Assembly (NCBI GenBank): GCA_050084515.1
Contig: CM114271.1
Span: forward strand, 10,602,001 to 10,666,000
Length of the DNA stretch: 64,000 nucleotides
DNA from: Blasia pusilla
Lineage: Eukaryota
Direction: 5' to 3'
In this document: positions 9,431 to 52,480 of the stretch, piece by piece
How positions within the stretch are numbered: position 1 is the first letter of the stretch
Layout of the letters: each line of letters starts with the position of its first letter
The notes under the pieces: generated by a model
The model's database searches: none
Seen by the model: the letters and a program-made list of their open reading frames with translations, nothing else
What the model was told of the DNA's origin: nothing
Translations under genes and position numbers: made by a program

Positions 9431-9602
9431 TCAAAAATCACACTTACCAATTTCACCTTCAATGTAAGAAAATAAATGCTTTATTAGCGAGAAGTATATA
9501 AAAAGAATGTCATAAAAATAACATTCTTACAATAGCCAAAAAAAAAACAATTTCGCTACAACTATCTATTATTCCATCTCGCTAACATCTGTAATTACTC
9601 TT

Positions 9603-15419: not shown

Positions 15420-15525
15420 TGTCACGAATGTTAGGATAGATCGGCGGGATCTAGCAGAGCGTCTGCACGAGTAGTGGAGGACAGGCCCAGGAGGTCGAGG
15501 ATGACCTTTTGAGGCCTAGGGAAAG

Positions 15526-22000: not shown

Positions 22001-23851
22001 TGCACATTGATGCTAGTGATTTCGCGATTGCTGGAATGTTGGTGCAAAAAGGGAGACTTGTAGCATAAAAGATCAAGAAGCTTAGCGACACTGAAAGGAG
22101 ATGGCCCACTCATGAGAAAGAGTTGTTCGCAGTGGTTCATTGCTTGAGAAAGTGGCGTCACTATCTGGGACTTCACACGACTCAAGTATTCACCGATAAC
22201 ATATCGCTCAAGTATTTTGAGACCCAGGATTGCGTATCACCAAAGCAACTTTGATGGCATGATACCTTGGCATTGACGAATGTGGAGCTAATCCACAAGC
22301 CGGGGAAAGACAATGTCATTCCACATGCGTTAAGTCGCAGGGATGAGCATATGCCATCGACGACACAAGTGTTGAGAGCAATGTTCCCTAATGAAACAGA
22401 CATGGAAAGAAGGATACATCAAGGATGCGCAAGCGAGGGAGTACCTTGGGAAGTTAACGCGGGGCGAGAAGGTGGCCAATCTAAGTTTGAGACACAGCTT
22501 GCTAAGGTTTAAGCAAAGCAGGATCTATGTAGGTCAAGGCAAGCTATGGACCAAAGTGTTTGTGGAATGTCATGATGGACTTTTGGCAGGACACAAAGGG
22601 GAGAAATCCTCTCTTGTTGTTTTGGCCAAAAGGTTCTTTTGGCCTAATATGAAGGAAGATGTTGCTCAATATGTGAAAACTTGCGCAACCTGTCAGGCAA
22701 ACAAAGTTTCTTATGCAAAGAAACAAGGCTTACTTCATCCTTTTCCGATCCCGGAGGGACCCTTGCAAAGCATTAGCATGGATTTCATTACGAGTGTTCC
22801 GGAATCTAAGGGATACAATGCTAAACTTCTGATACTTGATCGGTTTAGCAAGTTGGGGAGGTTTGTGCCGACGAGAGAGTCTGCGACGGCCTACACGACT
22901 TCCCGACTGTTCCTGGATGGTTGATGGCAAGCTCATGGATTGCCTAGGAGCATTGTGTCCGATCGAGATCCGAAGTTTACCAGCGCCTTTTGAAAACATC
23001 TACTCATGAGGTTTCGGACCAAACTCAACTTTAGTACGGCCTTCCATCCTGAAACGGATGGGCAAACGAAAAAAGTAAACTCGATCGTGAACCACTACTT
23101 AAGGAATTACGTGAGTGCGGACCAAAGAGATTGGGCCAAGTGGCTAAGTATGGCTGAGTATTGTTACAACTCGACCAAGCATTCTGCAACCGGAGAATCT
23201 CCGTTTCTTCTGGCGTATCAAAGAGAACCAGAAGGGCCTCTTGACTTGGCTCATTCAAAGGCCGCTACATCGGCACACACTCGTCAAGCAACGGCGGAAT
23301 TTTTGTTAGTGGAAATGCAAGAACGACAAGAGCGAGCGAGGAAAAGTCTTGCCAAGGCTCAACTAAGGTACGTGAAGCATGCTAACAAAAGTCGGCGCCA
23401 AGTGAGTTTCCAAGTTGGGGAACAAGTGTGGTTGAGTGTAAAAAATCTCACTCTTCCGAAGGAATTGTCCGCAAAATTGTCAACCAAGTATACCGGACCG
23501 TATGTGATCAAGGAAAAGCCGTTTGAGGATGTGTACACATTGGAGTTGCCAAACGAGTTCAAGATTCACCCCAGTTTCCATGTGTCATTGTTGAAGAAGT
23601 GTCTTCAAGACAATGTGCGTCCGGAACGAAGGATGGTATTGAGACCACAACCGGTCATCAGAAATGAGGAACCAGAGTTCAAGGTTGAGACCATTCTACG
23701 TTCTAGACGTAGAGCCGCCAAGTACGAGTACTTGGTCAAGTGGGAAGGCTACCATGTGAAAGAGGCGACTTGGATTGCGGAGGTGGAGCTTGAACACACG
23801 CAAGAAGCATTGCGAGACTTCAAATGGATGCAGGATAGGCACATGCATTAG
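19040..23851 (+). pseudogene. Chromovirus gag-pol: GAG/zinc knuckle, protease, RT, RNase H, integrase, chromodomain
   Basis: [54 protein letters not shown] (YIDD variant); ISMDFIT; FSTAFHPETDGQT; FKVETIL..YEYLVKWEGY..ATW. Many stops and frameshifts. Confidence 0.92.
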
Positions 23852-27800: not shown

Positions 27801-30442
27801 CAATCTCAACAGCATGGTCCCTCCTAAACTCATGGTAATCATCCATGGGTGGTCCCTCCAAGTGCTGAAACAACCCCTTCCAAGCCAAGAAGGGTGTAAA
27901 CAACGTGGCATTCCGCAACATCTGCATATCACACCACGTATCAAACTCATGAATGAAGTCCTCCGACTCAATGGTGCCCACTGCACCCAAGTATCATCGT
28001 GGGCCCTTCATGGCCCCATACATCCCGTCCATGTCCCAAATCAATGGAGCTGCAACACTCGATAACAACGTAGAAGACTTGGTGTTTGGAACAACTTCGT
28101 CCTCCTCTTCATCAACCATCGGAAGTGGAAAAGGTAGCCAATACCTCAATCCGCTCCATGGTCCCCAACCATATGACCAGACAGCTCCGTGATGACCAAC
28201 ACCGATGCCGCACCACCACCAAATCACCATCACTAAGTAACCAAGTGACGTCGATGTCGCTGTACTATTCTAGCTCTAGTAGCTATGGGTGTGGGCAACC
28301 TAACCTGTCATCACCACAAGAAGCCTCCCACGGTCTACTGGTCATCACTACAGTCTCACCGTGAGAGAAACAAATAAAGTCTCACTGGTCATCACTCCAG
28401 CCTCACTACCGATAGCACACGAGTTAAAATACTCTGGAAATCAGCGTCAGCCCTAACAATGGGCGTGAAAGCAAGAAGCAACGATGGAGGGGATCCAAAT
28501 ACAGGAAGTCCAACGACAACCCTCCAATCGCAAATGGAAGTAAAAAACGGAAATCAAGGTAACACAATCCACCAAACATGGCGTCCCCTGAATCCACAGA
28601 AACAACCACACAATTCTAACGCAATAGTTACTCCGCCGCTGGTCCATGACTTGCTAGTCGCACTCGCAACACCTAAAAATGTCACTTGCATGGAGAGGCC
28701 ACACCGTACTATGCGCTAGAGGTCCATCAACCTAAAACCCGAGATGCATAAAAGCGCCTAACACATCTACAAAAAACACCAAATGAACTACACCAGTGTG
28801 TACACTGGCATAGTTAAGTACTCAGCAGTTAAGCGTCTTCCAAGCACAATAGCCCAAGGATGGGTGACCACTTATGCAACACTCAACGCAAAAATCCTGC
28901 AAAAACAACCTCACGCCCAAGTAAGCATGCTTGCTCCTTACTCCGTCTCTCACGCCCACTCGCCCCGAGTTGCCTCGAAGCCTCGAAACGCCGAGAAATG
29001 CTCGAGACATGCCCCGTTCGCCACGCTTTGCTATGCTTCACTATGCTTCGCTATGGAGAGAGGCCCAACCAGGGCGCCCCAAGTGGGATAGGCGTCTCCA
29101 AAAATGGACAAGTCACCAACCAACCAGCCCCTCCGATCTGATGTCAACTATAGCCAGACTTCGTGTAGCGTCTTTTTTCGTACACCAGACTAGGCTGGAA
29201 ATTCGTATATTAGGCTAGCTATCCTCTTAGCACTATCGAGTGTGAGGGCTCGAAGGGAAGGGAAACATGCGTCGTAGACGCCGAAGGGCCTTCAGGGACA
29301 CCCAGCCGCTGTTACGCTCTTCTCAAAGTTTCCGCCCTTCTACTCATGGCAACCCTTGTTCCTCTTCGCTTCTTTGTTGGATCTTTAGCACTTAGCGCTG
29401 TGGTTGTATGTAAGCCTTATGTTATCCGTCTTACAAGGCCAGGGATATCCATTGCGGCAGCTTACTGGCCTAAGCGCTATGTGACCTTGAGCTAGTCCGC
29501 AAGATTTTGACCAACGATTACTCCACAAATCCTCAACCAAAATTAAATTTGTTTCAACCAGAATTCAATTGGACACCATAGTTACCCCTCCACAAAAAAT
29601 CAGCTACAATCAAGCTCTATACTTTGAGCTAAAAATCAGACAAACTTGCTGTCCATGCACCTCCAGAATCGCAAATCCAACAGCGCTTCCGCCCACATTC
29701 ATGCACACAGAAATCTGCAACACTCTTTCACCACAACAGCAATCCGCTCCACACACTCAAGCCGATAGCGTCACATGAGATCACAATAGAGGTAGCAATA
29801 GGAATCTCCAACCTACAGAGCTTCTGCACTCCAAGCTCTCCACATTAGAAAACCGTCGAACACGAACCAGAATCTTAAATCTTTGATAACTTCCAACTCC
29901 CTTGACCAGATGGGGCGATCTAAAGAGTGTTGGAAAGCTCTCAGCAAGACGCTTCTTTCCCAACCAACCATGCACCAGATCCACACCTCCAACATAGGCC
30001 ACAAGCCACAAACATCCACGGCTGAGTGCACAACCAGCCCTAACCAGATCCTATTGATCTACTCCAGTTCTTTGAGTGAAATCCGTGAAAGAGCTATTTT
30101 CATAAAACACCTATAGAATCACATACAATCGAGCCAAACCCACTCCACGATGGGAGAATCCAGGTCGAAGCTTGCAGGAACCACCATAGCCAAGAGCTAC
30201 TCACTACCAAGGCTAACTCCCAACGCAACAAGCTCAACTCAAAGAACTAACTGTTCTTTGAGTACACTCTACACTCTACCCTCCAACCTAAGGATGGGCC
30301 CTACTGGAAAAGTCACCCTCAACGGAGTAATCCTCAACCCTATGTATGAAACCGAATCCCTACCTAGACACTACGGCCCTACATAAGGTATGGCCTCTAC
30401 TAGCACACTATACTCTACGACATAATCCGTATGGTCATGACA
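24804..30442 (-). mobile_element. Complete-ended non-autonomous gypsy-PHD family element with split direct repeats
   Basis: L1 30079-30442, PPT ~25386-25395, S1 25279-25385, L2 24912-25276, S2 24804-24910. Perfect 4-bp TSD acta (24800-24803 / 30443-30446) inside the chromovirus 3' LTR. Confidence 0.88.
25560..28233 (-). pseudogene. gag - aspartic protease joined by an internal deletion to the integrase-tail/PHD
   Basis: FIHEFDTWCD..WKGLFQHLEGPPMDDYHEF (gag-like); RVLLDSGAQPLMLGK (protease); jump at ~25776 to HVRNCAPCH..CMLCGS..MLVCDRC. Confidence 0.82.
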
Positions 30443-31200
30443 ACTAGCGTTCGGGGAATTTGATTGTATTTTGGACCATGACGTTTAGCCCCAAGATGTG
30501 TTTGGGACAAATAAGGATGCGTTGGAAAGCTTCTCTTGAGACACTTCCAACGCATCAAAGATCTTAGCAAACACATAAGTACAAACCGAGATATTGGCCA
30601 AAAATGAGTGTGAGAGCAATCGGGTTGAGGGCCAATTGGAGAGGCCCGGGTGTCTTTCCCTAAAAGTAGGGGAACCTCGGAGATTCCCAGAAGTACTAGT
30701 AAGGGAGGAGTCTCTCCAAGATGTCTTGGAACACGAATCCCCACTTTGAGCGCCAAACGGCGTCTAAGAGGCACAGGATGGAACGGGAGTTTGGCGTTGG
30801 AACTCGAAACCCAAACGTGATCCAAGAGAGTGGACTTTGTATACCACACTTGGATTCCAACCTGAGATTCACTTTGTGCGAGTCTCGATTAGGGACTCAT
30901 TGGATGTCCATCGGACAGTTGGAACCGCCAGGCGCGAAACGCCGTTTGAGGTTCCTGAACCGACCATAAAGTCTCTCCGAAGTCTTTCGAGACTTTCCCG
31001 TGTTGTAAATCGCGAAACTAGGAAGGTTGAGCTTGATGAGAGACCGAGACGAGAACTCGGAAAGTTAGCCCGCTGATTGATCCAAGACCCGACTAACCAG
31101 AGTGCGTGTTTGGATGCAGATCAGCGTTGAGAGCGTGACCTACTAAACGCATGCTTCTGCAACAACAAGATTAACGTTCAAGGAGAGTAGGCACACGACA

Positions 31201-32663
31201 ATGCTAGTCTGTGATGGGTGTTCGAGAGGATGGCATATGGCATGTTTGACCCCACCTCTCACTAGGGTTCCTCAGGGATGATTTTTGTGCGCATACACAT
31301 CGCTACACAACATACATCGCTGTCACCAAACACACACACAAACACGCACGATCCCATGCTAACTCATGGCATCCAAACAACGAGACAAGAAGTAAGATCC
31401 AATCTCTCTCTACACCATCTCACACCATAGCTCTCAAAGGTGTGCACTCTCTCTCATGTCAAACCAAACCTACTCTCTTAATGAGAGGCTTGGGTTACAC
31501 TCATAAGGCAAGGGACCATAGCTCCGCCGCCTCATGTCAAGAGGTTCAACAAAGAGAGAGTGAACTCTCAAGCTCTCTCTCCTTGAGGTATACCCCTCCC
31601 CTCTCCCAAGCTCTCTCCATGGTAACCTATTCTCCCAAGTCACCTCCTTGGCTCTTGACCTGATGTAGGAGGTCAAGGGCAACTTACAAAAAATAGAAAG
31701 TCGATCATATACTCAAAATGGTACTTATCTAAAATAGTAAGTTCCTCAATATGCCTCCAAATGAGCCGAAACGAAGGGGAAACCTTCTCTCTCATGTTCC
31801 TCGGGGCCTCAGCAAGTCATCCTCGACCTACTCAGCGTGTCCTCCACTACTCACGAAGGCTCTCTCCTAGATCTCACCGATCTATCATAAAAGACGTGAC
31901 ACGATGGATGTGTCTCAAATGTACATAGAGTAGGTAGTTCTACATTCTGACTTGTGTCTGTGACATGGATGATAAGAAGGCGACTAACGATGGGGCCACA
32001 TGAGCACCCGACCTTCTTGCTCTTAGCGTCCGAGAGATGTATGTCATGGTAGGTAGGGATAGATAGCTATCTAGAGTTAGAGGGACCTAACCACCATCTA
32101 GGGGGGCGATTGGAGATATTTTGGTACTTCTTGTCTCGTTGTTTGGATCCCATGAGTTAGCATGGGATCGTGCGTATTTGCGTTTGTGTATATTGACAGC
32201 GATGTGTATGCGCACGACAACTGTCACGTCTTTTAGGATAGATTGGTGAGATCTAGTAGAGCGTCTTCGTGAGTAGTGGAGGACATGCTCAGTAAATCGA
32301 GGATGACATGCTAAGGCCCTTCGTTTCGGCTCATTTGGAGCCATATTGAAGAACTTACTATTTTAGGTAAGTACCATTTTGAGTGTATGATCAACTTTCT
32401 ATTTTTGATATGTAGCCCTTGACCTCTTACATCAGGTCAAGGGCCAAGGAGGTGACTTGGGAGCATAGGTTACCATGGAGAGAGCTTGGGAGAGGGGAGG
32501 GTATACCTAAAGGAGAGCTTGAGAGCTCATTCTCTCTTTGTTGAACCTCTTGGCATGAGGGGGCGGAGCTATGGTCTTGCTTGCCTTGTGTGTGTAACCC
32601 AAACCCACTCTCATTAGGAGAGTGGGTTTGGTTTGACGTTGAGAGAGACATGTGAGAGTGCAC
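31201..32663 (+). mobile_element. 3' end of another gypsy-PHD copy (PHD, 3' UTR, PPT, S1, truncated L2), interrupted by a solo unit
   Basis: [26 protein letters not shown] | RWMCLKCT*. PPT at ~32101, S1 to 32219, ac, then TGTCACG at 32222. Confidence 0.8.
31283..31901 (-). mobile_element. Solo L-S unit (solo-LTR equivalent) of the gypsy-PHD family
   Basis: Reverse complement of 17720-18360, flanked by 4-bp TSD tgat/cgat inside a PHD coding fragment. Confidence 0.82.
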
Positions 32664-32809: not shown

Positions 32810-33404
32810 GAAATGTTCTTTCATGCTCATCTGAAATGCTCTCTCTTGCTCATCCCCCCGGCGCCACTCCTGATCCACCTTGGTCATCAAGGTTAGCGGC
32901 TTCGCAACCGAATTGAAACCCTTGATGTACTGTTGATAGAAGTTTGCCAATCCCATGAATGCAAGAACTCGACTCACATCTGTAGGATGTGGAATGCGTG
33001 AAATAGCCTCTACCTTCGTCTGTTGCACACCAAGGCCCCCTGGGTATATTGTATGACCCAAGTACTCAATCTGGTCGTAGAAGAACTTGCACTTTCCTGG
33101 ATGTAGCTTCAGCCCATGTAATTGCAATCGTCGAAACACCTCCTCTAGATGTCGCTCATGCTCCTCAACCGTGGCGCTAAAGACTACGATGTCATCAATA
33201 TAACACCTAGCAAAATCCAGACCTGCCAAGATCCTATCCATGACCCTCTGAAACTCAACCGGGTGTTCTTTAACCCGAATGGTAAAAACCGCTTCTGGTA
33301 CAAACAATCCTTCCCGTGAGGATTGATGCCCCAAAATGCTGTCTTTTGCATGTCCTCCAATCTGATAGGGAGCTGATGGTATTCGGCTCGCAAATCCAAT
33401 GAAC
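32810..33404 (-). pseudogene. Ty3/gypsy reverse transcriptase fragment, probably of the gypsy-PHD family, in a rearranged block
   Basis: LDLRAEYHQL..KTAFW..LPFGLKN..FQRVMD..CYIDDIVVFS..KLHPGKCKF..YLGH..FMGLANFY. Flanked by an L fragment (32688-32809) and PPT-S (33405-33540). Confidence 0.85.
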
Positions 33405-36400
33405 TAGGGGCGATTGGAGATATTTTGGTACTTCTTGTCTCGTTGTTTGGATTCCATGAGTTAGCATGACATCGTTTGTGTTTGTGTGTGTGTTCGGTAA
33501 CAGCGATGTATGTTGTGTAGCGATGTGTATGCACACGGCATATCATTAAAAGAAGATGGGATTAGAAGAAATCTCCTAGGGTGTTAGCACCTATCCCTTC
33601 TATAATTAGCAAATATCATCTGGAAGTAATTAGAGGAAAATCTATCATCCGTGCATCCACTCGTAATTACAACCCCTGCAATATTCGACTTCGAGTACAA
33701 TATCTTACAGAATGCAAATTATTCGACAAGATTCTCAACCCTCGAATATGAATTTTTCATGTCGGATGGATATGAACTTTCCCAATTATTCTACCATGTT
33801 AATATTCTCATCGGCATGGAATAGATTATTATTCTCTACCATACTATTATGTGCCTTAATCTATGTTATTGTGGGAGAGTGCCTTTTTTATTTACAAATA
33901 TGTTTTTCTTGATACGTGACAAACAAACAATAAAAAAATGTTTCATATGTTAGGGACACAAAATTTTTTCAATTTGTGTGCAATATCATTATTAATATTT
34001 TCATAAAATATATACTAATAAAAATTATTCAAAATTTTTTTATTTATTATTTCTACAATATATTTTTTTATCGTTGGTAAATTTTTAATAATTTCCCCTC
34101 CAAGGTTTGCATTATTGACTAGTGTATTAATATTTTGGAAACTACACCGTATACTGATTACATTAAAAATGTGCATGAACTATGTAAATAACAATGTAAC
34201 ATCTCTTCCGATACATAAAAGGACGCGGAAACCGCGGGACGCACGCGCGAGACACATCGACGTTAGTCAAAGCCTCGAAGGAGACTTCAGTGTGTTAAGG
34301 TAAATCTATGGAAAAGTCTGCGGGCCAGTGGAAAGGCGGACTGGTCACTGGAGTGTGGAGTCTGTGGACTGGACCCGCTGCCGTTGTGGTACTGAAGGTA
34401 GTAAGGGTAGTACGTGCAATACGCGTCGGGAGCCGAAAGCCAGATGGTGATCATCATGATCACAAACTGTGCCAGGTGGGCCTATTCTTCTTCCCTTGTG
34501 TCTCGTGTTGTACCCTGTGCAGAAGGTTCTAGATGCCTTGGGAGAACAGGGCGTTTCCTGGAATCCTGGGAAGAAAGACGGGGAGGCGAGAGGGAACGAC
34601 GACTTTGTATCACGGCGATTGGGCTCTGTGAGATCGATGCGCGTTTGCGAGATCCATTCCACGTCGCATTCGGAGCTGACTGTAGAGGCAGCGGATTTGC
34701 AGTGAGCTTCCTGCTTTCGGAGGGATTTTGTGAGCTGTTCGTGTCCAAATTGGTAAGTTCTTCCATCTTCCCGCCGTGGCGCGTGTTGTTGTTGGTATTG
34801 TTATGGCAGGCCGCCTCTGACGCACGGGACACGTGAAGGCGTTCTTGATGCACGGAGGCACGGTAGGATAGCTCACGAGTACGCTATGGTCCTGGTAGTG
34901 AAGTTCTGCGATTAGAAGCGAGAGGAACTCGGTTTAGAGGAAAGCCCGAGAAGGAGCGGCTGTGGCAACTGACCTAAAGACAACCTCGGAAGTCTAATAC
35001 CTCATTATCTTCCTTGGGTTTCAATTCCAGATCGGCAGCATCAGTGCCCGGGGACAGCTGTGCAGCCTGAAACGAATCGAACACAGAGAGAGGAAGGCGA
35101 GGATTTTGGTGTAATATTTTGAACGAAAGGTACTCTTCCTCTCTCCTTAGGGGTCGTATGCGCTTGCCTCAATCTCGCCAATCGATTGCCGGAAGCCTGG
35201 TTCGATAGGTTTGCTTTTGTAGTTGGTTGTTAAGTGGATCACATTCTGGTCCAACTCTGCCGCTTCTACTGATTTCTTCATCAACTTCGTCACTTCCTTT
35301 CAATAGAGAGCTTCGACAATTGAAGGGTGAGCATTCGTAATCGGAAAATCCTAGGATTCTCCTCACTTAAACTCGGTTGGCCGATTCACATCCCGATTTC
35401 ACCTGAGAAGGAGTAGAACACTACAGTCAGGAGACGTTGACTGTCTTTAACACACTTGATTAAATCCGATGGGATTGAGTGTAGCCAACACTTGACCTGT
35501 TGCTGTACGCGCAAATGATTGGCACTTTGGATAATGTTGAAGAGGGTGGTCTGACTATGAGCATTCATAAAATCGAGGAGACACGTGCTATGGAAATCGT
35601 GCGGCTGTGACTGTCTCGCAAGGTCTCATTGTATTCCTATCAAATCGCAATCTGTGACACTTCTATCCCCATCGTTTGCTCTACCCTTGTTGATATCTTT
35701 TCCAGATTCCAATATGCGTAGACACTCTCCAGAAGATTCGTGAATCGAAATGGAAAATTTTCGTTTTCCCTCTAGAACCCTCGGTAGACCTTCTCCCCGA
35801 GTCCCCTATTTTGTGTGTGGAGACTCTGAACTGAGTCCAAGGCTGGCACCAGGATGGTGAAATACCATGGTAAGAAATCACGATTATAAGTCCTCGGCCA
35901 ATACCGTTACCATGCCCATCGTGACATCCATTACATATTTCTTGAACTTCGGATATCTGCTGCTGTCACGAGGTCACTAACATATGCAGTCTTCTGAATG
36001 GTGTGGTCTTCACCAGACGTCATGATTGTGAGATCGTACTCCATGTTGAAACGTCGATCAGAACTGGATGTTTCTTACTTCGCTCTGCTTGAATGTTCAG
36101 GACAACGTCTTGAAGCCTGTCACACTTCCGTTTCGCTTGAAAAGCACGGCTAACTGCAGGCAGGAGAATAGTCCAATTGGCCTGGTTGTATCTAAGGTTT
36201 TTTTTTCGTTGACTTGAATGCACAGATTTTTCTGTTTACTAACTAGAGTGCTACTGTTGGAGTGACTACTATTGAAATGACCACGGTCATCTTCATCTAA
36301 AAAGTTCTTTTGAACATATGCCTGAGGTGTTTTCAAGCCTCACTATGTTATTGGTAGGGAGGGCAGCTCCTCCAAACATAACAGCACATAATGCTGCTGT

Positions 36401-40510: not shown

Positions 40511-43415
40511 CTATATGGGACGTCTTGAAACACGCCCACGAATGTCCCCACCAATGTTGACATCTTTCTCGAGAGGAGTTCCGACTACCCGACGATTGAA
40601 GGCTTCCACATACATTTTCTTATCACCAGATCTCACAATGGCCCTTAAATAGAGCTCGTAAATCGAAGGACCCTTTTGCTTGGTTATACCTTTTGTCAGG
40701 AATATATGGGATGCTACAGTTTGTAGCATTGATCTTGCCTAATTTTATTGGCATGCCTCCACGAGTAATATTTTTTGGCATGTTTGTGATGACCTTGAGG
40801 AGGAATGGACACTCTCGGTTCCACTTGTATTTGGGCAATGGACATTTTCATGAATGTTCAATCCCTACACAAGCCAAATTGTCAATTGATGGAGAAAAAC
40901 CGAACGCTTAAGCGAACAATATGGCAATATGTCGGAATCCGACAGGTTGCAACACCCAAGAACCTCCTATTGCAACCCGTCGGAATCGGACGGGTTGGAA
41001 GTAGGAGACAAGTTTTTTGACCAAAATCTACCTGCAACCTGTCGGATTCCGATGGGTTGCAATAAGAATTTTGTTAGAAATAACAACTTGCAACCCGTCG
41101 GACTTCGACGTGTTGAAAGTAGAATCTGGTCACGAAAAAACTCTTTGCAACCCGTTAGAATTCAATAGGTTGCATCTGTCTGCAACCCGTCGGATAACTA
41201 CCCATTGCACAAAAAAAAATTGGATCTAATTGATTTTGCAACCTTTCGAAATCCGACAGATTGCAGACTAATGTAACTTGTCGATTCTGACGGGTTGTTT
41301 AACCTCTAGAGTTTTCAGGCTATCGGATTCTGACGGGTTGCAACCTCACATTTCGACCACATTTATTTTGCAACAGTTTCTACCTGTGAGCAAGAAAGGA
41401 GAAAATGTTGAACTCACCTGACGCATAAAGTTTCCCCGTTGTCTCATATATACAGTCCACCAACTGAGCCAAGAATACAACTCTTTATATTTTTCCTCAA
41501 TTGCATGCTTCCTCCACCACACATGAAGCTCTTATTGCAACGTTGTAGTAGAGCAACATGCTCTATTCTCTTATTCTCCTTGCTGCAAGATTTCGTGTAG
41601 CGAGTAACGGACTGTTGCCAATGGAAAGTATCCGACCTTTCCCTTTCCGGTTAAACTTCTCCATCCGAGAACACTTCTTTGATAGCAATCCATCATGGGT
41701 TTGAATTTTTGCCATGAACCCATAAATTTCAAGAGGTGGCCTTTTGTTTTCCTTCACCGCCTCCAATGAGAGTAACCAACACATCTTCAAGCTGCCAACA
41801 TCTTCTACTTTTACGTCACAAACAAAAATGTTTTTGAGTCCCTTCTCCACATAGTTGTAAACGTATGCACCCATGGTCAACCATCCATTCAACACCCTAT
41901 AGCAAATATCAAAGCTAATCCTGCTCCCAAATAGATCTTCTCCCTCCCTCATCCTGTCAATAAGATCCAGGCTGCTAGACGGCCCTATAGTAGAAATTTT
42001 GAAGACATAAGCTCTAGATCCCTCCCCTCCTTGACCCATGAATTGCCATCTCTAAAGACATGGAAACCAGGAGTTTGCTTTGATCTTGGCGATTGTATCC
42101 ATCTCTACGGTCTTTCCTGAACCATAAAGTATTCTTATCTACCGCAGCAAGTTCCTGAAGCATTTAGGATCATCAAGAAAGGCCAGATTTTCCCAAAGTT
42201 ATTTTTCCTCAGCTGGTGTGATCTCCCCTTGGCCAGATATTTGGAGCACTTGATCATAGATTTGTGTTGCCCTTGTGAGTTTGATCACTCTAGGCTTAGA
42301 TCCCGGTGAGTTTTTATATACCCTTGCCACTTTCTTGGCCACATCCTCCTTGATGTGTCTGTGAATGGCATGTGTGATAGGATGAGTATGAGATCCAACA
42401 TGAACACACAACCTGGTGTACATGGACATAAAATTGTAGTCATGCACTAGGAAAAAAATGTAAGCGGGACACGCTCTAATGCAAAAAGGGGAGGCTTGAT
42501 AATGAGGACATCGATGGCCACCCGACGATATGGTTGTACCGACCGCATAAGGAGTTTCTACATTTGGGGGGATTTTGAGGTATTGACTATCCCGTTTCGC
42601 TCGAGGAAAGGACATCCATGACGTCTACACTCAAAGGCTCCAACGTATTGGCGACGAGACACAATCCAAGGACCACTTGGATTTGAAGCACTTGTCCGCT
42701 GTAGTCTAGACCATCGATGACAACCGGATTTTCTGTCCATACCCTTCAAGCGTCCTCCATCTTTCTTATGAGTAGGACCAGCAAGTGAAAGCAACTCAAA
42801 AATACAATTTCCATCACATGTGGTTGGCAGCTCATCCACATGAATGTATTTGAACATTTTCAAGGGTAGAGATAAAAGCAAACTATTCCCCGAAACTCGC
42901 AGCAGGAATGAGTAAGCGCTTGTCGGGTCTAATATGTTTCAAACAAATCCTATGAGATTGATGAGATCTAGAATGTCTTCAGTTTGATCCATATTGTCAT
43001 GAACTTGTGAGTTTGGAGTCGATACAGGATTGGCACAAGGAATGGTATCAAACATGGAGCTCACAACACTCGTAGGTTTCAGACTGTCGACATGAGTAAG
43101 AGTGGGCTTCAAAGGTAGGCCATAAACTCTGAATTTTCCATTGGAGTAAGATAAGAGATTCCACACTTTGGAGTCTCCAATCTCTAGCTAGACTATTTCG
43201 CCTATCACGTCATCCGTTTCATCAACCTTGACATCCTTGGAAACGAAGATGGTTCCAATTTGGAGAAGAAATCGGAGTGAGAGGAAACGTTCTTCAACAA
43301 GTATATGAGAGTCAATAGGTTGGGCTCCAATTGAGGAAGGGCTGCTAGATGACTGCCACATGTGAGCTTCACATAATTTTCCATTTGGATCTGACTGTAG
43401 ATATGATTCGATCAA
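40511..43415 (-). pseudogene. Mutator-like (MULE) transposase, decayed, with an intron at 40865-41417
   Basis: WRKY/GCM-like Zn motif C..C..CVHVGSHTHP; core ISFD..GWLTM..IFVCDVKVED..GFM; DTFHWQQ; WLSWW. After a GT-AG intron comes HCPNTSGTESVH, the candidate third catalytic Glu. Confidence 0.65.
40930..41345. repeat. Cluster of short palindromic repeats (caacccgtcggaatccgacgggttg type); further copies at ~43580-43710
   Basis: About 10 degenerate copies of a ~25-bp self-complementary motif. Confidence 0.8.
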
Positions 43416-43791
43416 AAAGGAAAAAAAAAAGAATGAGAATGTTTAATTTATAGTGAATAGTGTCTGTTTATATTCTAATAGAAGATCTCTAAAAGGCGGT
43501 TGGTAGTTAGGTTGAACCATCGCCAACTGACTGGACCAACCGGAAAGGAATATTTGTACATCCTTTCACTTGGATTACAACTCGTCGGACTTTGGCAGGT
43601 TGCAGTGTGGCTATCTTTGATCGAGTCACTTACCGACTGCAAACGCTAGGACTCTTACGCGTTGCAAGGAGTGTTTTTGGTGAACCCGCCGGATTCCGAC
43701 ATGTTACAATTGAAATTGAAAAGTTGCTTGGAGACCAGATAAGTACCTTGACTTGATGCAAGTTCAACGTCAACATCGAGGAACAAACCCG

Positions 43792-44840
43792 ATGATTGAT
43801 CTGGATGATGAAATCACCCCACCTAGGTATTCGGAGACACTAGATAGCTCCCAAATTTAAGTTGAAGTAACTTCTGCAAAATCAGTGAATGTCTTATTTC
43901 AAAATTCCTCTGTTGATGGGACTTCCCAACATCCAATATCAGGGGTTGTTCAACAATATGGAACTCCGATCATTGAGGTAGATTGCAACCTCAAGAGGTG
44001 GCATATTTCTAGAAGCAACCCCCAACATGGACCAACCTATAGGGCAAGATCGGATGAAATTAGGAGAGCATGTGGGACTTCATGAATAAGAAGTGTACAA
44101 GGACTGTGCGACCACTGCCAGGCTTCTGGGGGCTGAAAAATATTCATCATTTTACAAGGATCGGGGATCAATTGAAGTACTTCTTTTGCCCAAATGAATC
44201 ATGCGCTTTCCAAAAATCATATCCAACTGCCATTGGAGCTCCATGGAATATCCCCACGATTTGGCCCATTGTTGTAAGAACCAATTGCACTCAAGAGGAA
44301 GTGGACAATCTTACAAGTGTAGGATTCAGACTCATAGACGGAGGAGGGACTTCGAAATATATTCGCATTACAAAGATATTCACATTTTGGATCCAACATA
44401 AGATTGATGTCAGCTTGTATCCTGAGAAGGCGGATGATCTCAATCCACTATTTTTGTTCGAGTCAAGAAATGAGGTGAAGAGAAACAGAACGTGTAGGTC
44501 AACGGTGGAGAAAGTAAAGCGAATCGCTTTAGCTCAGGAGGCCAACGTGGAAATCATTGCCACAAAAGACGTTCATAGTGGGAATGGAATAGGAAGGATG
44601 TATTGGGTCATGAACAACATTGTGAATTCAAGTGTTTCTGGTATGTATGTTATACACATCTGTTGCTTTCCCACATGTTCGTATGATGACTTTGTCCAAA
44701 GAGAGACAAGTGGGAAAAGGTATTTCCACATATACTATGTTGTGCTTGTAGCTTTAAGAGAGTTGGAGCTATGAGTAGGAATCCATCAACCAATTTTGTC
44801 CCTCAAAGAACTGCAAAGTATCCTAAACAAGCCACTTTGA
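43792..44840 (+). pseudogene. Decayed ORF with a degenerate C-terminal SWIM zinc finger, divergent from the MULE transposase
   Basis: YVIHICCFPTCSYDDF..KRYFHIYYVVL resembles SWIM CxC-xn-CxH; also Cys-rich YFFCPNESC. Confidence 0.5.
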
Positions 44841-47119
44841 GGATGCAACATTAGGTCTCTCAGTAGTTTGGAAATGCCAAATTATTCAATGCAATCTGAA
44901 ACTTTCATCAATGTGTTGAAATGAAATATTTTTCAGACCTTGGATGGAAAAAGTGATTTGTTCCACATTTGTGCTCCAATAAATTTTCCAATTTTATAAC
45001 TATGTGTTGAGAAATGATTGGATGAAGGAAAGTTTCATGTATACTACAACCTGTCTGATTCAAACGGGTTACCATAGTGGGAAGGAGGAAACAAAGTTTG
45101 TGGGAGTGACTAAGGAAGAGAACATAATTGTAATTTTTTTTAAAAAAATTCCTTCCTCTCTTCAACATACAAGAAGCTCTTCAACCTACAGGAAATTCTC
45201 TTAAAAAAAAGATCTCTTTGGGTTGACAATAGTTTCCTCTTTCCTCTCTCCCTCTCTTTCTCTCCTCTTATCGCTCCTCCTTGTTGATTGGAGGATTTTT
45301 CTTCACGACCGAGTTAGGGCCAAGATTTGCACTTGATGAGGAGTGACACTTACATTTTTTTCAGGTTACCCATTCTAGTCTTTTTCCCTATACGTATGAG
45401 GAAATTATGGGAATTGGGTAGTTATTTGGGGATAGATATTGGGTTTAATGCAGATGCTCACAACATTGTTGATGTCTGTGATTTAGGGGACAGAGACCAG
45501 TGTGGAATATCCAAACTTGAGGATGTATTCTATTGATTAGACAATAGGAGAATAGGCAATTTGCGGCACCACGCCGCATAGTACACATCTCAATGAGAGG
45601 GAGTGTAGATTGAGTGCCACATGTTTGGGTTGAGTGATTGAGGGATTACTCGTGAGATTGAGAGTGATCATGTGAGCTGGGCATAAGGCCATCATGCGAG
45701 GCGCCCTTCGAGGACTTTGAGAGGTGAGATGGTGGATTTAAGAGTAGCTCTAGGGGATTCATGCGGAATGGCGCTAGGTTTAATTTTGAGGGTCTCCAAG
45801 TGAGGGACTACCTCGACCTCCTTCTATGATATCTTCAGATGAGGGGAAGGGCGTAGAGGAGTTTTTGAGCACATCATTACACATAGTGAGTGGTCCCACC
45901 ATTTGGGAGTACGAGATGGAAGACTGGGGTAGAGGACTGCGTAGGTTTTTGGGAGCTGTAGGTACGATAGAGTTGCACGACTTCATTATGGAGTTAAGGA
46001 GTTGGTGTGATTCACAACACGCCACGAACTCTAGAGAGTTCAACCCGTTCACAACATGGAAGGGCATGTTCCAAAATTTAGAGGGGGCACCCATGGAAGA
46101 TTACCATGAGTTTTCCCAGAGGTACGCTCATGAGATTGAGGCATGAAGACTCTACTATGATCCATATTATGTATCATGGACTGAGCCATTTCCAGATGAG
46201 GAGGAGGAGCTAGGAGAGGCTACTTCTTCTACCACTAGTGATGTGTTAGGAGGGGTGAGTCGGATTGAGGCAGTTGCATCGTCTAGTGGGGTTTGTCCTA
46301 GGTTCAACCCCGTGGTTGACTTCTTTGCGGAGTTATGGAGCATCCACGACTTCCATAGGCATATAGGAGAGAGTCAAAGGGAGGCATTTACTCGCTTACG
46401 TTGGTTGATTCGTGTCACTTAGGGGATGATAGAGGCCCAGGCTATCCAGGCATGGTACGCAATGCTGGAACAAGACGTGCAGATATGGGTGAGGGATACA
46501 GTACTTCTTATGCACACCTCACCTACGCTAAGAGATGTTTTTGAGATGGCGGAGTGTATTGAGCACAACATGGCCGAGGAGAGCGTAGCAGCTATGGGTC
46601 ACGTGAGAGAGTAGTCACGATTACCTACACCACCAATGGAGCAACGTGGATTCCGGGAGAGGACTATGGCATCACAAGTTGAGGGAGGATACCGAGAGTC
46701 CATGCCAAAGAGACCTAGAGCCTAGAGGTCGTGCGCCAGGTGGTCCTATTGGGGAACAAGGAGTTGGATTTTTCCGAGGGGGTGGTGGAGTTGCGTGTGG
46801 AGAAGGTAGAGGTCCGCCACCTAGAGGCGTTGAGGGATACGCCAGGTGTGAGGATGGGATGGCTACTCAGATAAGGCAGTTGCAGCAATAGATTGCCGTT
46901 ATGGCATTTCGGTTACTCGATGCCGGATCAGTGGCATTGATGTTAATGGAGCAATTAGAGACATGAAAGATCCTGGCTCGATGAGTGGGACTGCAGAGAT
47001 GGAGACAACCGTTCTTATTACTCGTGGAGCAACTGCAAAGTTGGATCCGGAGAGAGGGAAGACCAAAAAATAGACCAAGCTTCCTCAGTCTTTCACGTTA
47101 TCCAAGGCGATGAGGATCA

Positions 47120-48493
47120 TGTAGTACCCACATTTTTGTAATTTTGGCAGAAAGATCAATTTTTGTATAGAAGTTTTCCTTGAGCGAGGACTAAAGACTC
47201 AATACCGAAAGTAAAGAGTCTTATTTTACTGAAATTGTGTGAAAGAGTGACTGATAGAACTCTGATGAGAGGACATGATAAGTTAGAAGGTTAAGGACTG
47301 TCTTGGAAGAGTGAGAATTGTGTAAAAGTAGTAAAAGATAGGAAAATAAGTAAGAAGAGGAAGCGCGGGTACTTTGCGAGGAAGACCGCAGTAAGAATAG
47401 TGTAAAAGACTTTCAACGAAGACTGGAAAAAGCTTCTTTGAAAAGAAGAATGAAGTTAGTCTTTGTGTAAAGACTGGGTACAAAGAATGAAGAGCAAAGA
47501 GCAAAGACTCACGAGCAAAGACTAAGAACTCAAAGAAGATAGGATCGCGAAGATAGGATAGCAAAGATAAAGACTACAAAGACTGCAAAGAGCACAAAGA
47601 GTGTGAAGACCGAACCGTCGCGGCAATTTCGGAAGCCAGAAATGGAGCGGCGCAGCGGCTAAGAAGGAAGAGGAAATGAAACGTCAGGGCAACCAATCGA
47701 CTTAGGAAGATGGAGGGTTGGGAATCTGAATAGAGTAGGTTAGTATTATCAATTAGAATTCTAGTTCAGAATAGGAAGATCAATCGGAGATTATAAAGAC
47801 TATTTAAAGAGCAAATTAGTAGAAGAAGGGGGCATTCCCTGGTGTCTTGAATCTTCCAAATACTTATGATTGAGCGGATGAAGAGGGATTATGCCCTTGT
47901 GTTTGGAATTTCCAGTACTTGTGAGGATTGTGTGAATAGGTTGTTAAGGGATGATCCAAGTTGAAGAGTCTTTTACTTCCTGAAGCTTGTAATAGTTTCT
48001 AGTTCTTTCCACTCTTTGATGCAGTTGAAGTCTCTTCTCTCGTGCTTTCTGATGTACGGAGTTGAGTGTAAAATCTTATTGGGCTGCAGCAGGGATGAGA
48101 GTTCAATCTTGTGATTTCGAAATTCCAAAAGATAATTAGGAAGAGCGTAGGAAAGCTGTTAGACAGTGAGTAACATGCCATGACAGATTCAGTTCTAAAA
48201 GTAGGGTGAGCCACCATTCTTAAGGTCTTCATTGGAGCTTTGTTATTCAAGATTTGCAAGAGTCTTTTTTTGCACTTGATAAGAGTCTTATCTAAGAGGG
48301 AAGAAAACCAATTTATTCTTTTGTACTTGTAAAGGCTGTGTCGTTATAGTTAGTCAGTAAAATCATTGAAGAAGGAGTTATTCTTGTTAATTTTTATAAA
48401 ACCTCTCTTTACTCAAGAATAGTGGTCTCTTGGGAACGAACTTAGTACTTTATGATAGAAAGGAGTATCTTTTTCCTTGAGTTGTCCATTACA
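47120..48493. mobile_element. Solo LTR (1374 bp) of an unrelated family inserted between gag and protease
   Basis: TGTAGT...ATTACA termini and 5-bp TSD gatca/gatcc. The flanks rejoin as LPQSFTLSKAMRIP, matching LPQSFLLSEVLRTP in the 26.5-kb copy. Confidence 0.85.
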
Positions 48494-49692
48494 GATCCCA
48501 TTGATAGGTCTTGATCAGAGTTCCCAAAGAGTTGATGTTGTTGGTATGCAAGCACAAAGGGCGATGGGAGAAGCAAGTGTGACAACTCCTATGGCAAATG
48601 CTCATATGGAGCCCGTGTTGAGTATGTTTTTGGGGACGACCACTACAATGTATCGTGCCCCATGGTTTGCTACTTCCGATGTTACGACGTTAGGAGGTAT
48701 GTCTATTGAGATTTTCTGGCTTGCCGCTACATTATGTGAGCGTGGAGGAGTTGGTGTTCTTGCATCACATTCAGAGATGATTGGAGAGGAGGTGATAGAT
48801 CTGCCCTTGGGGCCTATGCTCGGGCTGTCCATCTCAAAATTCATGGCAGGTTGTGGCTACTAGGATGGTGGAGATGCCCGCTAGATTTGCTATAGAGTGT
48901 GCCATGGTGTCTCAAGGAGTTGTTTTGCTGGATAATCGAGGAGAGGTATTCCATTTGGTGAGTCCAAGAGGTACAGTATTTTGTCCATAGTGTGTCTTGT
49001 TGGATTCAGGAGCGCAACCCCTGATGTTGGGGAAAGCAGCATTTACAAGATTGGGCATGACGAGGGCCGCTATGGAGTGTTGCCCATTGAAGATATAAAT
49101 TTCCTTGGATGGAGTGAGTACAACACAGTTTATCACTCGACATGAGGTCTTGGTGAGGATTCGTCCAGGTCATCCTTCTGATGAGTCCGTGGTGCGGGCC
49201 AAGGCAAGTGTAACCGATGTCGAGTCCTATGACATCTTGGTTGGAGGAGCAATATTTTATCTGATGGGGTTTTCCTTGGATTACTGGGAGGAGTCAGCAT
49301 CCTACAGACCAAGATGGAAATTAGGTGATGGGCGACTTATCTTGTTATCCGTTCGATTCACGGATGGAGTGATCTAGCGACAACTAAGAGAGATGGCGAC
49401 ATTAACATCATTAATCAACAACGCCATCACTTGGCCTGTTGATTTGATCAAGGGGCATGTCCATGCAAGGGACAAACCCATATCTTAAACTTCTATGGAT
49501 AGGAGTGTTATGGTAGCCGCCTCATTCCATGGAGGAGAGGTGCGGCTGTAGGGCTTGAGTGAGGAGCTTCGACGCGTGGCTGATGAGCATGTGCAGATGG
49601 CATTGAGTGAGACGTTTGCACCAGAGCGTGACAGATCAGAGGAACCCGAGGTAGCCAGAAGTGCTACAATATCCTTGGACACCACACCCATT

Positions 49693-50670
49693 GTGTGGCG
49701 CATCCCAAAGGAGGGTATTCTGGTGTTGGATCTCTTTGGAGGGATCAACACTGGATTGGTTGTTGTTTTGCAGGCAAGAGTGCACATGCAGCAGTATCTA
49801 TATGTTGAGCTTGATGAGGTTGCGAGGCACGTTTCACTTCAACATGTGGCGCACTTACGCCTCCATTTTTCCCAACTTGTTTTCTGCGTCCTACGTAAGG
49901 GGTTACGAGAGTTCCCTACGAAATGACATTTCATTGTTGGGGATGTAGGATTTGGAGCAAATAGGGACCATTGATTTGGTCATTGATGGTGAGCCATGTC
50001 AGGGCCAATCGAGTGTTGGACGAGGTAGTGTGTTGGCTGACACTTGATCCAAGTTGTTTTGGGAAATGATGAGGATCTTGCAATATTTGCAAGAGCATCA
50101 GTCCCATTCTCCAACTTACATATTGGAGAATATGCCAATTTAGGGCGATTCGAGGTTACGAGTGGAGACAAATGCACATCAAGTGCGCGTGTGCTTGGAT
50201 CGGCCTAACAATGTTATTGGATGTAGCGAGTATAGGTTCAGAAGCACATCGCCCGATCTATGGTGGACCAACTTGGTGCCACATGAGGTGTTGCATAGGG
50301 CGTATGTGAGAGTGGGGCGCGCCTCCCATTTGTTGGTGGATTCTATTATGGATCCATGTCATCAATCACATGCAGAGAGGCACGATGATTGATCGCCCTT
50401 GACTATAGTCAATAGGGTTGGCATGCCATGGGCAACCTTTCCCACGTTTGTAAGTTTTCGTACTTCCTATGCATACAAGGAAGCCAGACTTGGGTTGGGA
50501 TGGGATGACCAGACTCAACGGTTGGTAAAGCCTATTGCCGATGAGCGAGAGCGAGTGATGAGATTCCCATAAGAGTAATAGTAGTACTGTCACTATCAGA
50601 GGTGTCACGATGTCATGTCTTGGATCAGGCGATGGACCTGAACTGTTTGACATGGATCATCAGCTTAGGA
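49693..50670 (+). pseudogene. DNMT3-like DNA (cytosine-5) methyltransferase domain within the retrotransposon pol, disrupted
   Basis: Motifs in order across frameshifts: I VLDLFGGI, II YLYVELD, III NDI, IV IDLVIDGEPCQGQS (PC at 49994-49999), V D..SKLFWE, VI YILEN, VIII LLDVASIGSEAHRP/LWWTNL, IX ADERERVMRFP, X SEVSRCHVLDQAMDLN. Confidence 0.85.
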
Positions 50671-51211
50671 GTAGTTGAGCAGTTTCGGATCGATGAGGTT
50701 GCAACAAGTCATAGCTCTTGCATTGGTGAGCCCCATGCCTACTTAGACGGTTGAGGCAATGGCAAAGGCCGAGATCTGAGGAGATCGACACACCTTGGAT
50801 GATCCGGAGAGACAACCTTGGATTTCATGGGATATTTTGCAAGTGCGCTGATAGATGATAGCCACAACATCGAGGGTGGATTTGTGGATTGCATTTGGAG
50901 GAGATGAGAGTTTGCAGTTGGCTATAGAGGAGAAGTCGAGTTCGGTTTTCCAAGATGGGGTTGCACCATAGCAACCACCAATGCCTGCGCTTGAGAGTCC
51001 TACGGTAGTCACAATGGAGACTTCGGAGCCAGATATGGGCCCCAAGTTGACACGAGGAGAGCAACGACAGATATATCAGTTCCTGAGGAGTTATAGGAGC
51101 TATTTTGCATTTAGCATACATGATTTGGGTACGTTGAAGGATCCAAGGATCCGCATTGGGTTGTCTAACAACACGCCAATCTTTCGGCGACCCTGTAGGT
51201 ATAGTGATATG

Positions 51212-52480
51212 AACATTACTTATAAATCTCTCATCATCATCTTTCTTCTTCATATTTAGGCCTTCCTCTTCATTGTAAAGTTAATAAATCATGAATTTTT
51301 TTCAGAACATGCATTTGAGTGTCAAGATCCCAATGGAAAAAGAAAATCTCCAAATGACCACCCATAGAGGGATTTAAAAATCCAAAACCCTGAATATGGT
51401 CTCCAAATTTTAAATTGAACATGAAGTATGATATGGGAGATCCACATGATCTAGCAGCAAGAGGGACTTTTCAACCCCACATCTCTAATGTTTCAGCTCC
51501 ATCTAACGGTGGGAACTTAGGATTCTTTAGTAAAGAGGTCGAAATCCCAAAAAGACTCTACACATTACTTGTAAATCACTCATTATGCTCTTTCTTCTTC
51601 ATTTTTTGGCCCTCCTCTTCACCATAAAGTCCATGAACTATGAAAGTTTGTCACAACATGCACTTCTGTATGAGGATCCTAGGAGAAAAAGAAGATCTCT
51701 AAACGACCGTCCATAGAGGGAATTTAAAATCCAAAACCCTTAATATGGTCTCCCAATTTTAAGTGAACATGAAGTGTGATATGTGAGATCCACACCATCG
51801 AGCATTAACCGGGCCTTTGCAACCCCTCATACCTCATGTCTCAGCTCCATCCAATGGTGGGAACTCATGACGCTTATGTAAAAAGATCAAAATCCAAAGA
51901 AGACTTCGGACATTACTTGTAAATCACTCATCATCCTCTTTCTTCTTCATATTTTGGCCCTCCTCTTCACCAAAAAGTCCATAAGTCATGAAAGTTTGTC
52001 ACAATATGCACTTGAGTGTTAGGATCCTAAAGGGAAAAGAAAATCTCCAAATGACCATTCATAGAGGGAATTAGAAATCCAAAACCTTCAATATGGTCTC
52101 CCAATTTTAAATTGAACATGAAATATGATGTGGAAGATCCAAACTGCCCAACAAGAAGAGGACCTTTGCAATCCCACATCCCTCATGTTTTAGCTCCATC
52201 CAACAGTGGGAACTCATGATGCTTGAGTACAAAAGTCAAAATCCAAAGAAGACTTGGAACATTACTTGTAAATCGCACATATTCCTCTTTCTTCTCCATA
52301 TTCTAGCCTTCCTCTTCATAACAAACTCCATAAATCATAAGAGGTTGTCACAAAATGCACTTCAGTGTCACGATCCCAGGGAAAAAAAAAATCTCCAAAT
52401 AACCATCCAAAGAGGGAATTAAAAATCCTAAATTAATTTGGTCATCCAAATTTAAATTGATATATGAAAACTCCTTAAAG
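51212..52480. repeat. Tandem repeat, ~349-bp unit, ~3.6 copies
   Basis: acattacttgtaaatc at ~51212, 51562, 51910 and 52259, with collinear unit content. Confidence 0.9.

Follow-up and report, generated by a model that had tools for sequence, protein, structure and literature searches.

A probable decayed Ty3/gypsy-type retrotransposon with a DNMT3-like methyltransferase domain in Blasia pusilla, and its relatives in green plants

We analysed a 64,000-nucleotide stretch of Blasia pusilla DNA (GenBank assembly GCA_050084515.1, contig CM114271.1, positions 10,602,001 to 10,666,000 of the forward strand), called the window here and numbered from its first letter. In our judgement, with a probability of about 0.9, the sequence at 45931–51214 on the plus strand is an old, decayed, 3′-truncated copy of a Ty3/gypsy-type long terminal repeat (LTR) retrotransposon of the Gypsy-DNMT3 lineage. 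It includes a cytosine methyltransferase domain, and its intact relatives are predicted from their sequences to encode gag (with a CCHC zinc knuckle), protease, a DNMT3-like methyltransferase, reverse transcriptase (RT), RNase H and integrase, in that order. An earlier annotation made from the letters alone, hereafter the original prediction, had proposed such an element with the methyltransferase between protease and RT.

Results

A methyltransferase domain interrupted by stops and frame changes

Motifs were read from positions 49552–50702 translated in the three forward frames, with an X for each stop. All of the C5 cytosine methyltransferase motifs listed in the original prediction lie at the places claimed and in the correct order, and their positions, from motif I to motif X, define a domain of approximately 1 kb:

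49687–50691, plus strand: predicted DNMT3-like C5 cytosine methyltransferase domain, motifs I–X in order, frames +1/+2/+3/+2/+1
49735–49743, plus strand: FGG (of LFGG) in motif I, VLDLFGGINTGL, frame +1
49994–50002, plus strand: P-C-Q in motif IV, GEPCQG, catalytic Cys codon 49997–49999, frame +2
50126–50134, plus strand: ENM in motif VI, YILENMP, frame +2
50214–50255, plus strand: motif VIII, first half, LLDVASIGSEAHRP, frame +3
50258–50275, plus strand: motif VIII, second half, LWWTNL, frame +2
50543–50554, plus strand: ERER in the ADERERVMRFP motif, frame +2
from 50620, plus strand: motif X, LDQAMDLNCLTWI, frame +1

Motifs I (FxG), IV (PC), VI, VIII, IX and X follow one another in canonical order over 49735–50658, spread across three frames, and motif VI reads ENM where the canonical form is ENV. 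The domain had been described as hidden by stops and frameshifts, and these could be located: five in-frame stops (49946, 50045, 50141, 50390 and 50570) and four frame changes (+1 to +2 near 49868–49881, +2 to +3 near 50193, +3 to +2 at 50256–50257 and +2 to +1 near 50570). With so many interruptions inside the domain, the copy is a relic. It is old, decayed and truncated at its 3′ end, where a 349-bp satellite cuts it off, and it cannot make any protein; the earlier description of it as dead was correct.

The match to C5 methyltransferases in the window is nonetheless far beyond chance. Pfam PF00145 (DNA_methylase), the model put forward in the original prediction as a check, matched the frame-2 read-through with 30.8 bits (E 2.7e-7), where the curated cut-off is 22, and scored 27 bits in a longer read-through; frames 1 and 3 of the domain stretch matched no Pfam family. 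A phmmer search of 1.84 billion proteins returned 433 matches at E≤1e-3, 126 of them at E≤1e-10, with a best value of 9.2e-38. When the Marchantia protein Mp_4g09160 (P0170) was aligned to the window by tblastn, the summed E value was 5e-134, and identity over the domain ranged from 41 to 49% for the four relatives P0163, P0168, P0170 and P0171.

The domain is collinear with a retrotransposon coding region

The sequences that flank the domain align, piece by piece, to proteins of the same family:

45931–46653, plus strand: gag-like N-terminal region, frame +1, two stops; 43% identity to Mp_4g09160 residues 9–266, E 9e-51
46966–47106, plus strand: gag middle piece; 38% over 56 amino acids (aa) to Mp_4g09160 residues 426–481, E 1e-5
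47107–48641, plus strand: Lys/Glu-rich stretch of about 1.5 kb in gag, without counterpart in relatives (about 40 residues separate the flanking matches in Mp_4g09160)
48642–48794, plus strand: pre-protease piece, frame +3; 35% over 52 aa to Mp_4g09160 residues 522–573
48814–49686, plus strand: retropepsin-like protease and linker to the methyltransferase, frame +1; 44% over 365 aa to Mp_4g09160 residues 573–935
50692–50836, plus strand: tail beyond the methyltransferase, as in those relatives with a first open reading frame that closes at this point, frame +2; Mp_4g09160 residues 1204–1243
51026–51214, plus strand: RT N-terminal lead-in, 63 aa, frame +2; 56% identity to MARPO_0091s0058 (P0171) residues 697–759, E 4e-16
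51211–52468, no strand assigned: 349-bp tandem repeat, 3.6 copies, in place of the remainder of the element; Tandem Repeats Finder period 349, 80% matches, score 1547

The protease motif VLLDSGAQP starts at 48994, where it had been predicted, with D-S-G-A at 49003–49014 and ILVGG...LDYW further on. The alignment to Mp_4g09160 agrees with this placement, and residues 772–907 of P0026, a 2188-aa protein from a metagenome contig, align to 48877–49308 and span its Pfam Asp_protease_2 domain (796–888). Protease, linker and motif I form a single unbroken alignment to Mp_4g09160 (48814–49881, 44% over 365 aa), the remainder of the methyltransferase aligns over 49868–50566 at 41–47% identity, and the part containing motif X aligns over 50575–50691 at 64%. 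One Marchantia protein covers protease, linker and methyltransferase (48814–50836), and another extends into RT, whose N-terminus had also been predicted just downstream of the domain. Marchantia gene models align in the order gag, protease, methyltransferase and start of RT, as the proposed collinear arrangement implies, and by this measure the methyltransferase is an integral part of the coding region of the element.

The Lys/Glu-rich stretch at 47107–48641 occurs once in the window (blastn) and is possibly an insertion or an expansion; the sequence upstream of the element, 43000–45930, also occurs once. At its other end the element stops abruptly at about 51212, at the start of the 349-bp satellite, which corresponds to window repeat families D5 and D6. 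Five full-length relatives gave no high-scoring segment pair with E<1 beyond 51214, and the window held no second piece of methyltransferase.

Relatives carry the methyltransferase at the same place

In P0026, Pfam places a CCHC zinc knuckle at 530, Asp_protease at 796–888, DNA_methylase at 978–1226, RVT at 1421–1575, RNase H at 1664–1766 and integrase at 1895–2061, and the metagenome polyproteins P0209 and P0231 have a similar domain order. The Marchantia models MARPO_0091s0058 and Mp_2g26090 (P0223) carry the methyltransferase followed by RT and RNase H (Pfam), and both have the layout PR-DNMT-RT-RH (PR, protease; DNMT, methyltransferase; RH, RNase H; INT, integrase below). For KFL_009030040 (P0227) of Klebsormidium nitens, Pfam gives DNMT at 312, RT at 770, RNase H at 1002 and integrase at 1235, and blastp places the protease at 50–169. 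The pol order PR-RT-RNase H-integrase is therefore seen in P0026, P0209, P0231 and P0227, and the window copy retains PR and the RT lead-in.

We took a census of 247 fetched sequences that match the domain profile, a number that also counts the frames of the window and a few duplicates from clusters. The domain stands alone in 107 of these, follows PR and/or precedes RT in 52, and lies between RNase H and integrase in 88. Both PR and RT/RNase H surround the domain in 11 of the 52, and most of the 88 have a PHD finger after the integrase. Among 34 protease-methyltransferase proteins, 24 have a complete domain and end 39–164 aa beyond it. Pfam found no PWWP, ADD or other companion domain of host DNMT3 in the relatives scanned. 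In many relatives the first open reading frame (ORF) is gag-protease-methyltransferase and RT-RNase H-integrase occupies a separate ORF; in others all are fused. Where there are two ORFs, the boundary falls after the methyltransferase and not after gag (window equivalent 50692–50972).

These comparisons bear on a different origin for the methyltransferase stretch, namely that it is a host DNMT3 pseudogene, or a fragment captured once between two pieces of retrotransposon. Such a history would be in keeping with the heavy decay, with the nested transposon fragments of which the window is a mosaic, and with the lack of terminal repeats to delimit an element. It is difficult to reconcile with single Marchantia proteins that align across protease, linker and methyltransferase or onward into RT, with the 52 census sequences in which the domain adjoins PR or RT (or, in the 11, both), or with the identical order in K. 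nitens. Since the related copies from Marchantia, K. nitens and metagenomes keep the methyltransferase between PR and RT, instead of running from one directly to the other, the idea of a one-off insertion fails, and we consider this origin highly improbable. The retrotransposon reading, with the methyltransferase as one of the element's own domains, is the one adopted below.

A DNMT3-type profile, fold and set of catalytic residues

A family profile was built from 19 family proteins and the window read-through (20 sequences) and searched against all PDB sequences. DNMT3A ranked first (E 1.7e-24), followed by DNMT3C (1.5e-21) and DNMT3B (2.4e-20); tobacco and Arabidopsis DRM (6.8e-15 and 1.9e-11), M.HhaI (5e-10) and DNMT2 (about 4e-4) came lower, and no chain named DNMT1 was present among the 57 PDB sequences listed at E≤0.01. 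The raw frame-2 read-through of the window gave weak DNMT3B matches by phmmer (E 0.004). P0163, an intact relative, was modelled with AlphaFold from the family alignment, and the model had a mean pLDDT (predicted local distance difference test) of 86.7 and a pTM (predicted template modelling score) of 0.87. When this model was compared with the PDB by Foldseek, the matches listed to rank 49 were all DNMT3A, DNMT3B or DNMT3C, the best being 6f57_D (E 7.5e-19, TM score 0.83 normalised to target). Profile ranking and superposition of the model both agree with the resemblance to DNMT3 that was first noted from the motifs, and they identify the domain as a C5 cytosine methyltransferase of the DNMT3 type with its motifs unpermuted. 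Transposon copies from K. nitens fall in a divergent Dnmt3-related clade (PMC5890265). In the Protein Atlas, the Marchantia domain fell into generic PF00145 clusters, one of them Streptophyta and two dominated by phages.

Residue conservation was counted over the filled rows of 130 aligned family members, with the window excluded. The motif IV Cys is present in 124/124 rows and the motif VI Glu in 129/129, with Asn beside it in 125/129. Motif VIII retains Arg in 125/127, Trp in 126/126 and Asn in 126/126, and the E, R and E of the ERERAMGF motif are found in 121, 117 and 123 of 123 rows. Retention of these catalytic residues across the family fits an active enzyme.

Phylogeny and range of the family

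A quick maximum-likelihood tree was computed for the in-frame part of the domain (71 rows, 233 columns), with support from the Shimodaira-Hasegawa-like approximate likelihood ratio test (SH-aLRT). Rows were sampled from the 131 aligned: all named rows with ≥90 filled columns, 4 domain-only rows, 24 of the 27 unnamed type-A rows and 22 of the 78 unnamed type-B rows; the Sphagnum row was left out, having too few filled columns. An 18-row clade with SH-aLRT 100 contains the window, Calypogeia fissa, 3 unnamed environmental sequences and 13 Marchantia rows, which form a clade of their own (support 99). Calypogeia fissa is a leafy liverwort (Jungermanniopsida) and Marchantia belongs to Marchantiopsida; the nearest relatives of the window copy are liverwort sequences. 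K. nitens lies within the major clade of the window, on a long branch of its own. Judged by its transposon proteins, which can pass from one species to another, the window most likely comes from a liverwort. An origin in a streptophyte or other green alga, with which the find would say nothing about land plants, is in keeping with the three unnamed sequences among the nearest relatives, but is unlikely in view of the liverwort clade, which stands apart from K. nitens and the chlorophyte rows, and of a second copy in the window (described below) with 56–71% identity to Mp_4g09160 over gag and protease. The PR-DNMT-RT and RH-DNMT-INT layouts lie on opposite sides of a branch with support 97, with the exception of two long rows labelled Tetraselmis.

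Public proteins extend this picture. Among 941 candidates from a word-indexed search, 9 matched: one unnamed protein and eight gene models (961–1278 aa) from Marchantia polymorpha. Two shorter Marchantia models also carry the domain. A profile search for longer proteins gave 86 matches at E≤1e-10 among 7999 scored candidates. They include 15 Marchantia polymorpha models, which brings the number to 17 with the two shorter ones, as well as Sphagnum fallax BDL97_09G086500 (E 5.7e-64), one protein from K. nitens and two from the chlorophyte Haematococcus lacustris. Other matches bear the codes 'Chrzof1' and 'Tetstr1', which we take to stand for Chromochloris and Tetraselmis. Calypogeia fissa has one public protein with the domain. 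The Marchantia paralogues are up to 93–95% identical over 940–1280 aa, and the Marchantia genome therefore holds fairly young open copies.

Even if only the named Marchantia, Calypogeia and Sphagnum proteins are considered, their sequences place the family in land plants. Its range takes in liverworts and probably mosses, with the second architecture represented in chlorophytes. P0017, P0020, P0036, P0058, P0063 and P0206 are among the proteins in which a homologous domain separates RNase H from integrase; such proteins mostly end in a PHD finger. We found no description of an RH-DNMT-INT-PHD architecture in these algae in the literature searched. One polyprotein of this kind, the 1974-aa RT-RH-DNMT-INT-PHD protein P0211, has been assigned in NCBI to a metagenome-assembled genome called 'Minisyncoccia bacterium'; its contig is most likely eukaryotic and algal, and binned by mistake.

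Other features of the window

A second, younger copy of the family is present on the minus strand at 25751–28032, with gag and protease only and ORFs of up to 255 aa. Read from 28032 to 25751 it is 56–71% identical to residues 1–865 of Mp_4g09160, and it breaks off immediately short of the methyltransferase. On either side of this copy lie direct repeats (24804–25385 and 30079–30453, about 5.2 kb apart), one of which is in turn a 475-bp tandem. The copy might have arisen by deletion, or might be a non-autonomous form. We had considered it as a family member that lacks a methyltransferase, and dropped it from that role because it ends before the domain and has no RT.

Two further pieces resemble the family. 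The first, at 15523–17403 on the plus strand, spans RNase H, integrase and a PHD finger (the last with Pfam PHD, E 1.4e-8) and shows 52% identity to the RNase H of MARPO_0091s0058. Its RNase H is followed by integrase with no intervening methyltransferase, and the fragment may represent the 3′ half of a copy of the family; its PHD region has a near-copy at 31198–31289. The second is an isolated RT fragment of the same family on the minus strand at 32819–33405, 60% identical to MARPO_0091s0058 residues 816–976. Rfam gave no match on the whole window. The remaining features are as follows:

2049–2930, plus strand: 293-aa open frame with a weak protein-kinase match (PK_Tyr_Ser-Thr, 29.9 bits, cut-off 23.1), possibly a host gene exon or pseudogene
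6077–9431: long tandem array of 180–181-bp units, 60–87% between copies, with one interruption near 8200–8660
9956–11508, minus strand: remains of a hAT-type transposase (hAT dimerisation domain, E 1.9e-11; DUF659, E 1.1e-19)
13035–13800: GC-rich array of an approximately 43/86-bp repeat (GCCCGCA...GGGCTTCAAGG), within the most GC-rich part of the window (55% GC)
21049–23851, plus strand: chromovirus gypsy with RT, integrase, SH3_Tf2-1 and chromodomain (Pfam, E 1.5e-11), 25–30% identical to the pol of the methyltransferase-bearing family

Discussion

Several observations weigh against the interpretation of 45931–51214 as a methyltransferase-bearing gypsy element. There is no LTR or other terminal repeat, and no pair of direct repeats brackets the interval within the window; RT beyond the 63-aa lead-in, RNase H and integrase are missing from this copy, and for these two reasons the 'gypsy' label rests on relatives. 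When three frames of 45001–51302 were scanned, PF00145 was the sole Pfam family matched. Since Pfam is blind to gag, PR and RT here, those parts are assigned by alignment to relatives. The tree is a quick, unrooted one with SH-aLRT as its only support measure, drawn from a sample of rows of the family itself. Finally, the isolated domain of the K. nitens element, KnitGypsy-Dnmt3, produced no methylation in yeast (PMC5890265), in the only known bench test of the Gypsy-DNMT3 lineage. Its authors regard the result as inconclusive because human DNMT3B failed as well (PMC5890265). With no methylation in that test despite the conserved residues, the role of the enzyme is something we infer.

The yeast result also lends itself to another account, in which the element is as described and its domain writes no 5-methylcytosine on DNA, acting instead on the element's RNA or serving as an S-adenosylmethionine- or DNA-binding module without turnover. 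RNA methylation has been proposed for a methyltransferase borne by a long interspersed nuclear element (LINE) (PMC5890265), which also speaks for this account. On the other side stand the near-invariance of the catalytic Cys, of the Glu of the ENV motif and of the motif VIII Arg, Trp and Asn (125–126 of 126–127) across a deep tree, a fold and profile that are those of the DNA enzymes DNMT3A, DNMT3B and DNMT3C and far ahead of the tRNA enzyme DNMT2, and the failure of human DNMT3B in the same assay (PMC5890265). We regard the account without DNA methylation as unlikely, though a more serious contender than a captured pseudogene, and continue with a DNA methyltransferase encoded by the retrotransposon.

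In live elements, the enzyme would be translated together with gag and protease, and since the first ORF ends just past the methyltransferase in many relatives, it would be made in gag-like amounts. The element's protease would cut it free, and it would travel with the particle. Its most likely substrate would be freshly made cDNA, or the DNA that surrounds a new insertion. Methylation there could make the copy resemble resident methylated DNA, or could set the local chromatin state. The idea that retrotransposon methyltransferases modify cDNA or insertion sites is that of de Mendoza et al. (PMC5890265).

A broader proposal, which we advance tentatively and at somewhat less than even odds, is that Gypsy-DNMT3, rather than being peculiar to the Klebsormidium lineage, is an old green-plant lineage in which the domain has two placements in pol (streptophytes with PR-DNMT-RT, chlorophytes with RH-DNMT-INT-PHD), and that it has persisted in land plants, with young open copies in Marchantia polymorpha. 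In that case de novo methylation in bryophytes could be supplemented or disturbed by DNMT3 activity from transposons, and what a retrotransposon gains from a methyltransferase could be tested in a transformable haploid plant. Marchantia offers many long open copies and good genetics, and the function of the transposon-borne enzyme is therefore testable there. Retrotransposons that bear the silencing enzyme of their hosts have been a published curiosity, known in green plants from one alga; sequences of this type are now seen in liverworts and in at least one moss gene model. The literature searched contains no statement of this range, whether for liverworts, moss or the chlorophyte architecture.

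Comparison with known systems

The original prediction mentioned retrotransposon-borne C5 methyltransferases from dinoflagellates and Klebsormidium, and both are described in PMC5890265, for Symbiodinium and K. nitens. SymbioDIRS-Dnmt3 and SymbioLINE-Dnmt of Symbiodinium resemble the window element in being retrotransposon-borne cytosine methyltransferases and are set apart, by their description, as members of the DIRS and LINE classes. They were acquired independently, and SymbioDIRS-Dnmt3 methylates CG de novo in yeast (PMC5890265).

Among host enzymes, DNMT3A, DNMT3B, DNMT3C and plant DNMT3 and DRM provide the reference, and the family has the catalytic fold and motif order of DNMT3. Its motif VIII, AHRxR-(L/Y)(W/F)W(T/G)NL, and its ERE-x-x-GF align with DNMT3A, whereas motif IV reads PCQ in the family and PCN in the aligned DNMT3A. 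The motifs of the family are unpermuted, unlike those of DRM (PMC5890265).

The chlorophyte-type gypsy elements (Haematococcus lacustris QJQ45_005506, a 'Chrzof1' protein and many unnamed contigs) carry a homologous DNMT3-like domain, with profile E values down to about 1e-130. They differ in their RT-RH-DNMT-INT-PHD layout, with the domain between RNase H and integrase, and belong to the other major branch of the tree (support 97).

The closest published system is KnitGypsy-Dnmt3 (PMC5890265), which, like the window element, is a gypsy-type LTR element with a non-rearranged Dnmt3-like domain in its polyprotein. KFL_009030040 matches the family profile at E 2e-104 and shares the order PR-DNMT-RT-RH-INT with the family of the window copy. 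The two differ in that K. nitens sits on its own long branch and the window copy in a separate, well-supported liverwort clade; the K. nitens element ends in DIRS-like repeats (PMC5890265), whereas the window copy is known without its ends. In the text of PMC5890265 the element is reported from K. nitens alone and its acquisition is put 'in the K. nitens lineage'; that text, supplements aside, does not mention Marchantia. In the accessible text of later papers of the field, the 2018 work is cited as 'streptophytes', and in that of a 2026 preprint as 'streptophytes (Gypsy-DNMT3)'.

Gypsy elements with a methyltransferase are not reported for Marchantia, liverworts or other land plants in the accessible text of the literature searched, which includes PMC5890265, PMC12344493, PMC11982613, PMC5784723, PMC6453930, PMC9516144, PMC11244446 and bioRxiv 2026.05.21.726589, 363937 and 2021.02.12.428880, the Marchantia genome paper and supplements lying outside it. 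The novelty claimed in the original prediction holds to the extent that no land-plant paper was found, and was overstated in that the kind of element had been published for Klebsormidium and that 17 Marchantia models, one from Calypogeia fissa and one from Sphagnum fallax were already public.

The Marchantia models, among them Mp_4g09160, Mp_8g17980, Mp_6g11220, MARPO_0091s0058 and Mp_2g26090, share the gag-PR-DNMT(-RT-RH) order of the window copy, to which they are 43–44% identical over gag and protease. Unlike the decayed window copy, they have long open reading frames, and their sole annotation is as hypothetical proteins; the 93–95% identity reached among these paralogues indicates that they are much younger. 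The Blasia element thus belongs to the published Gypsy-DNMT3 kind, and what is new is the range of the family.

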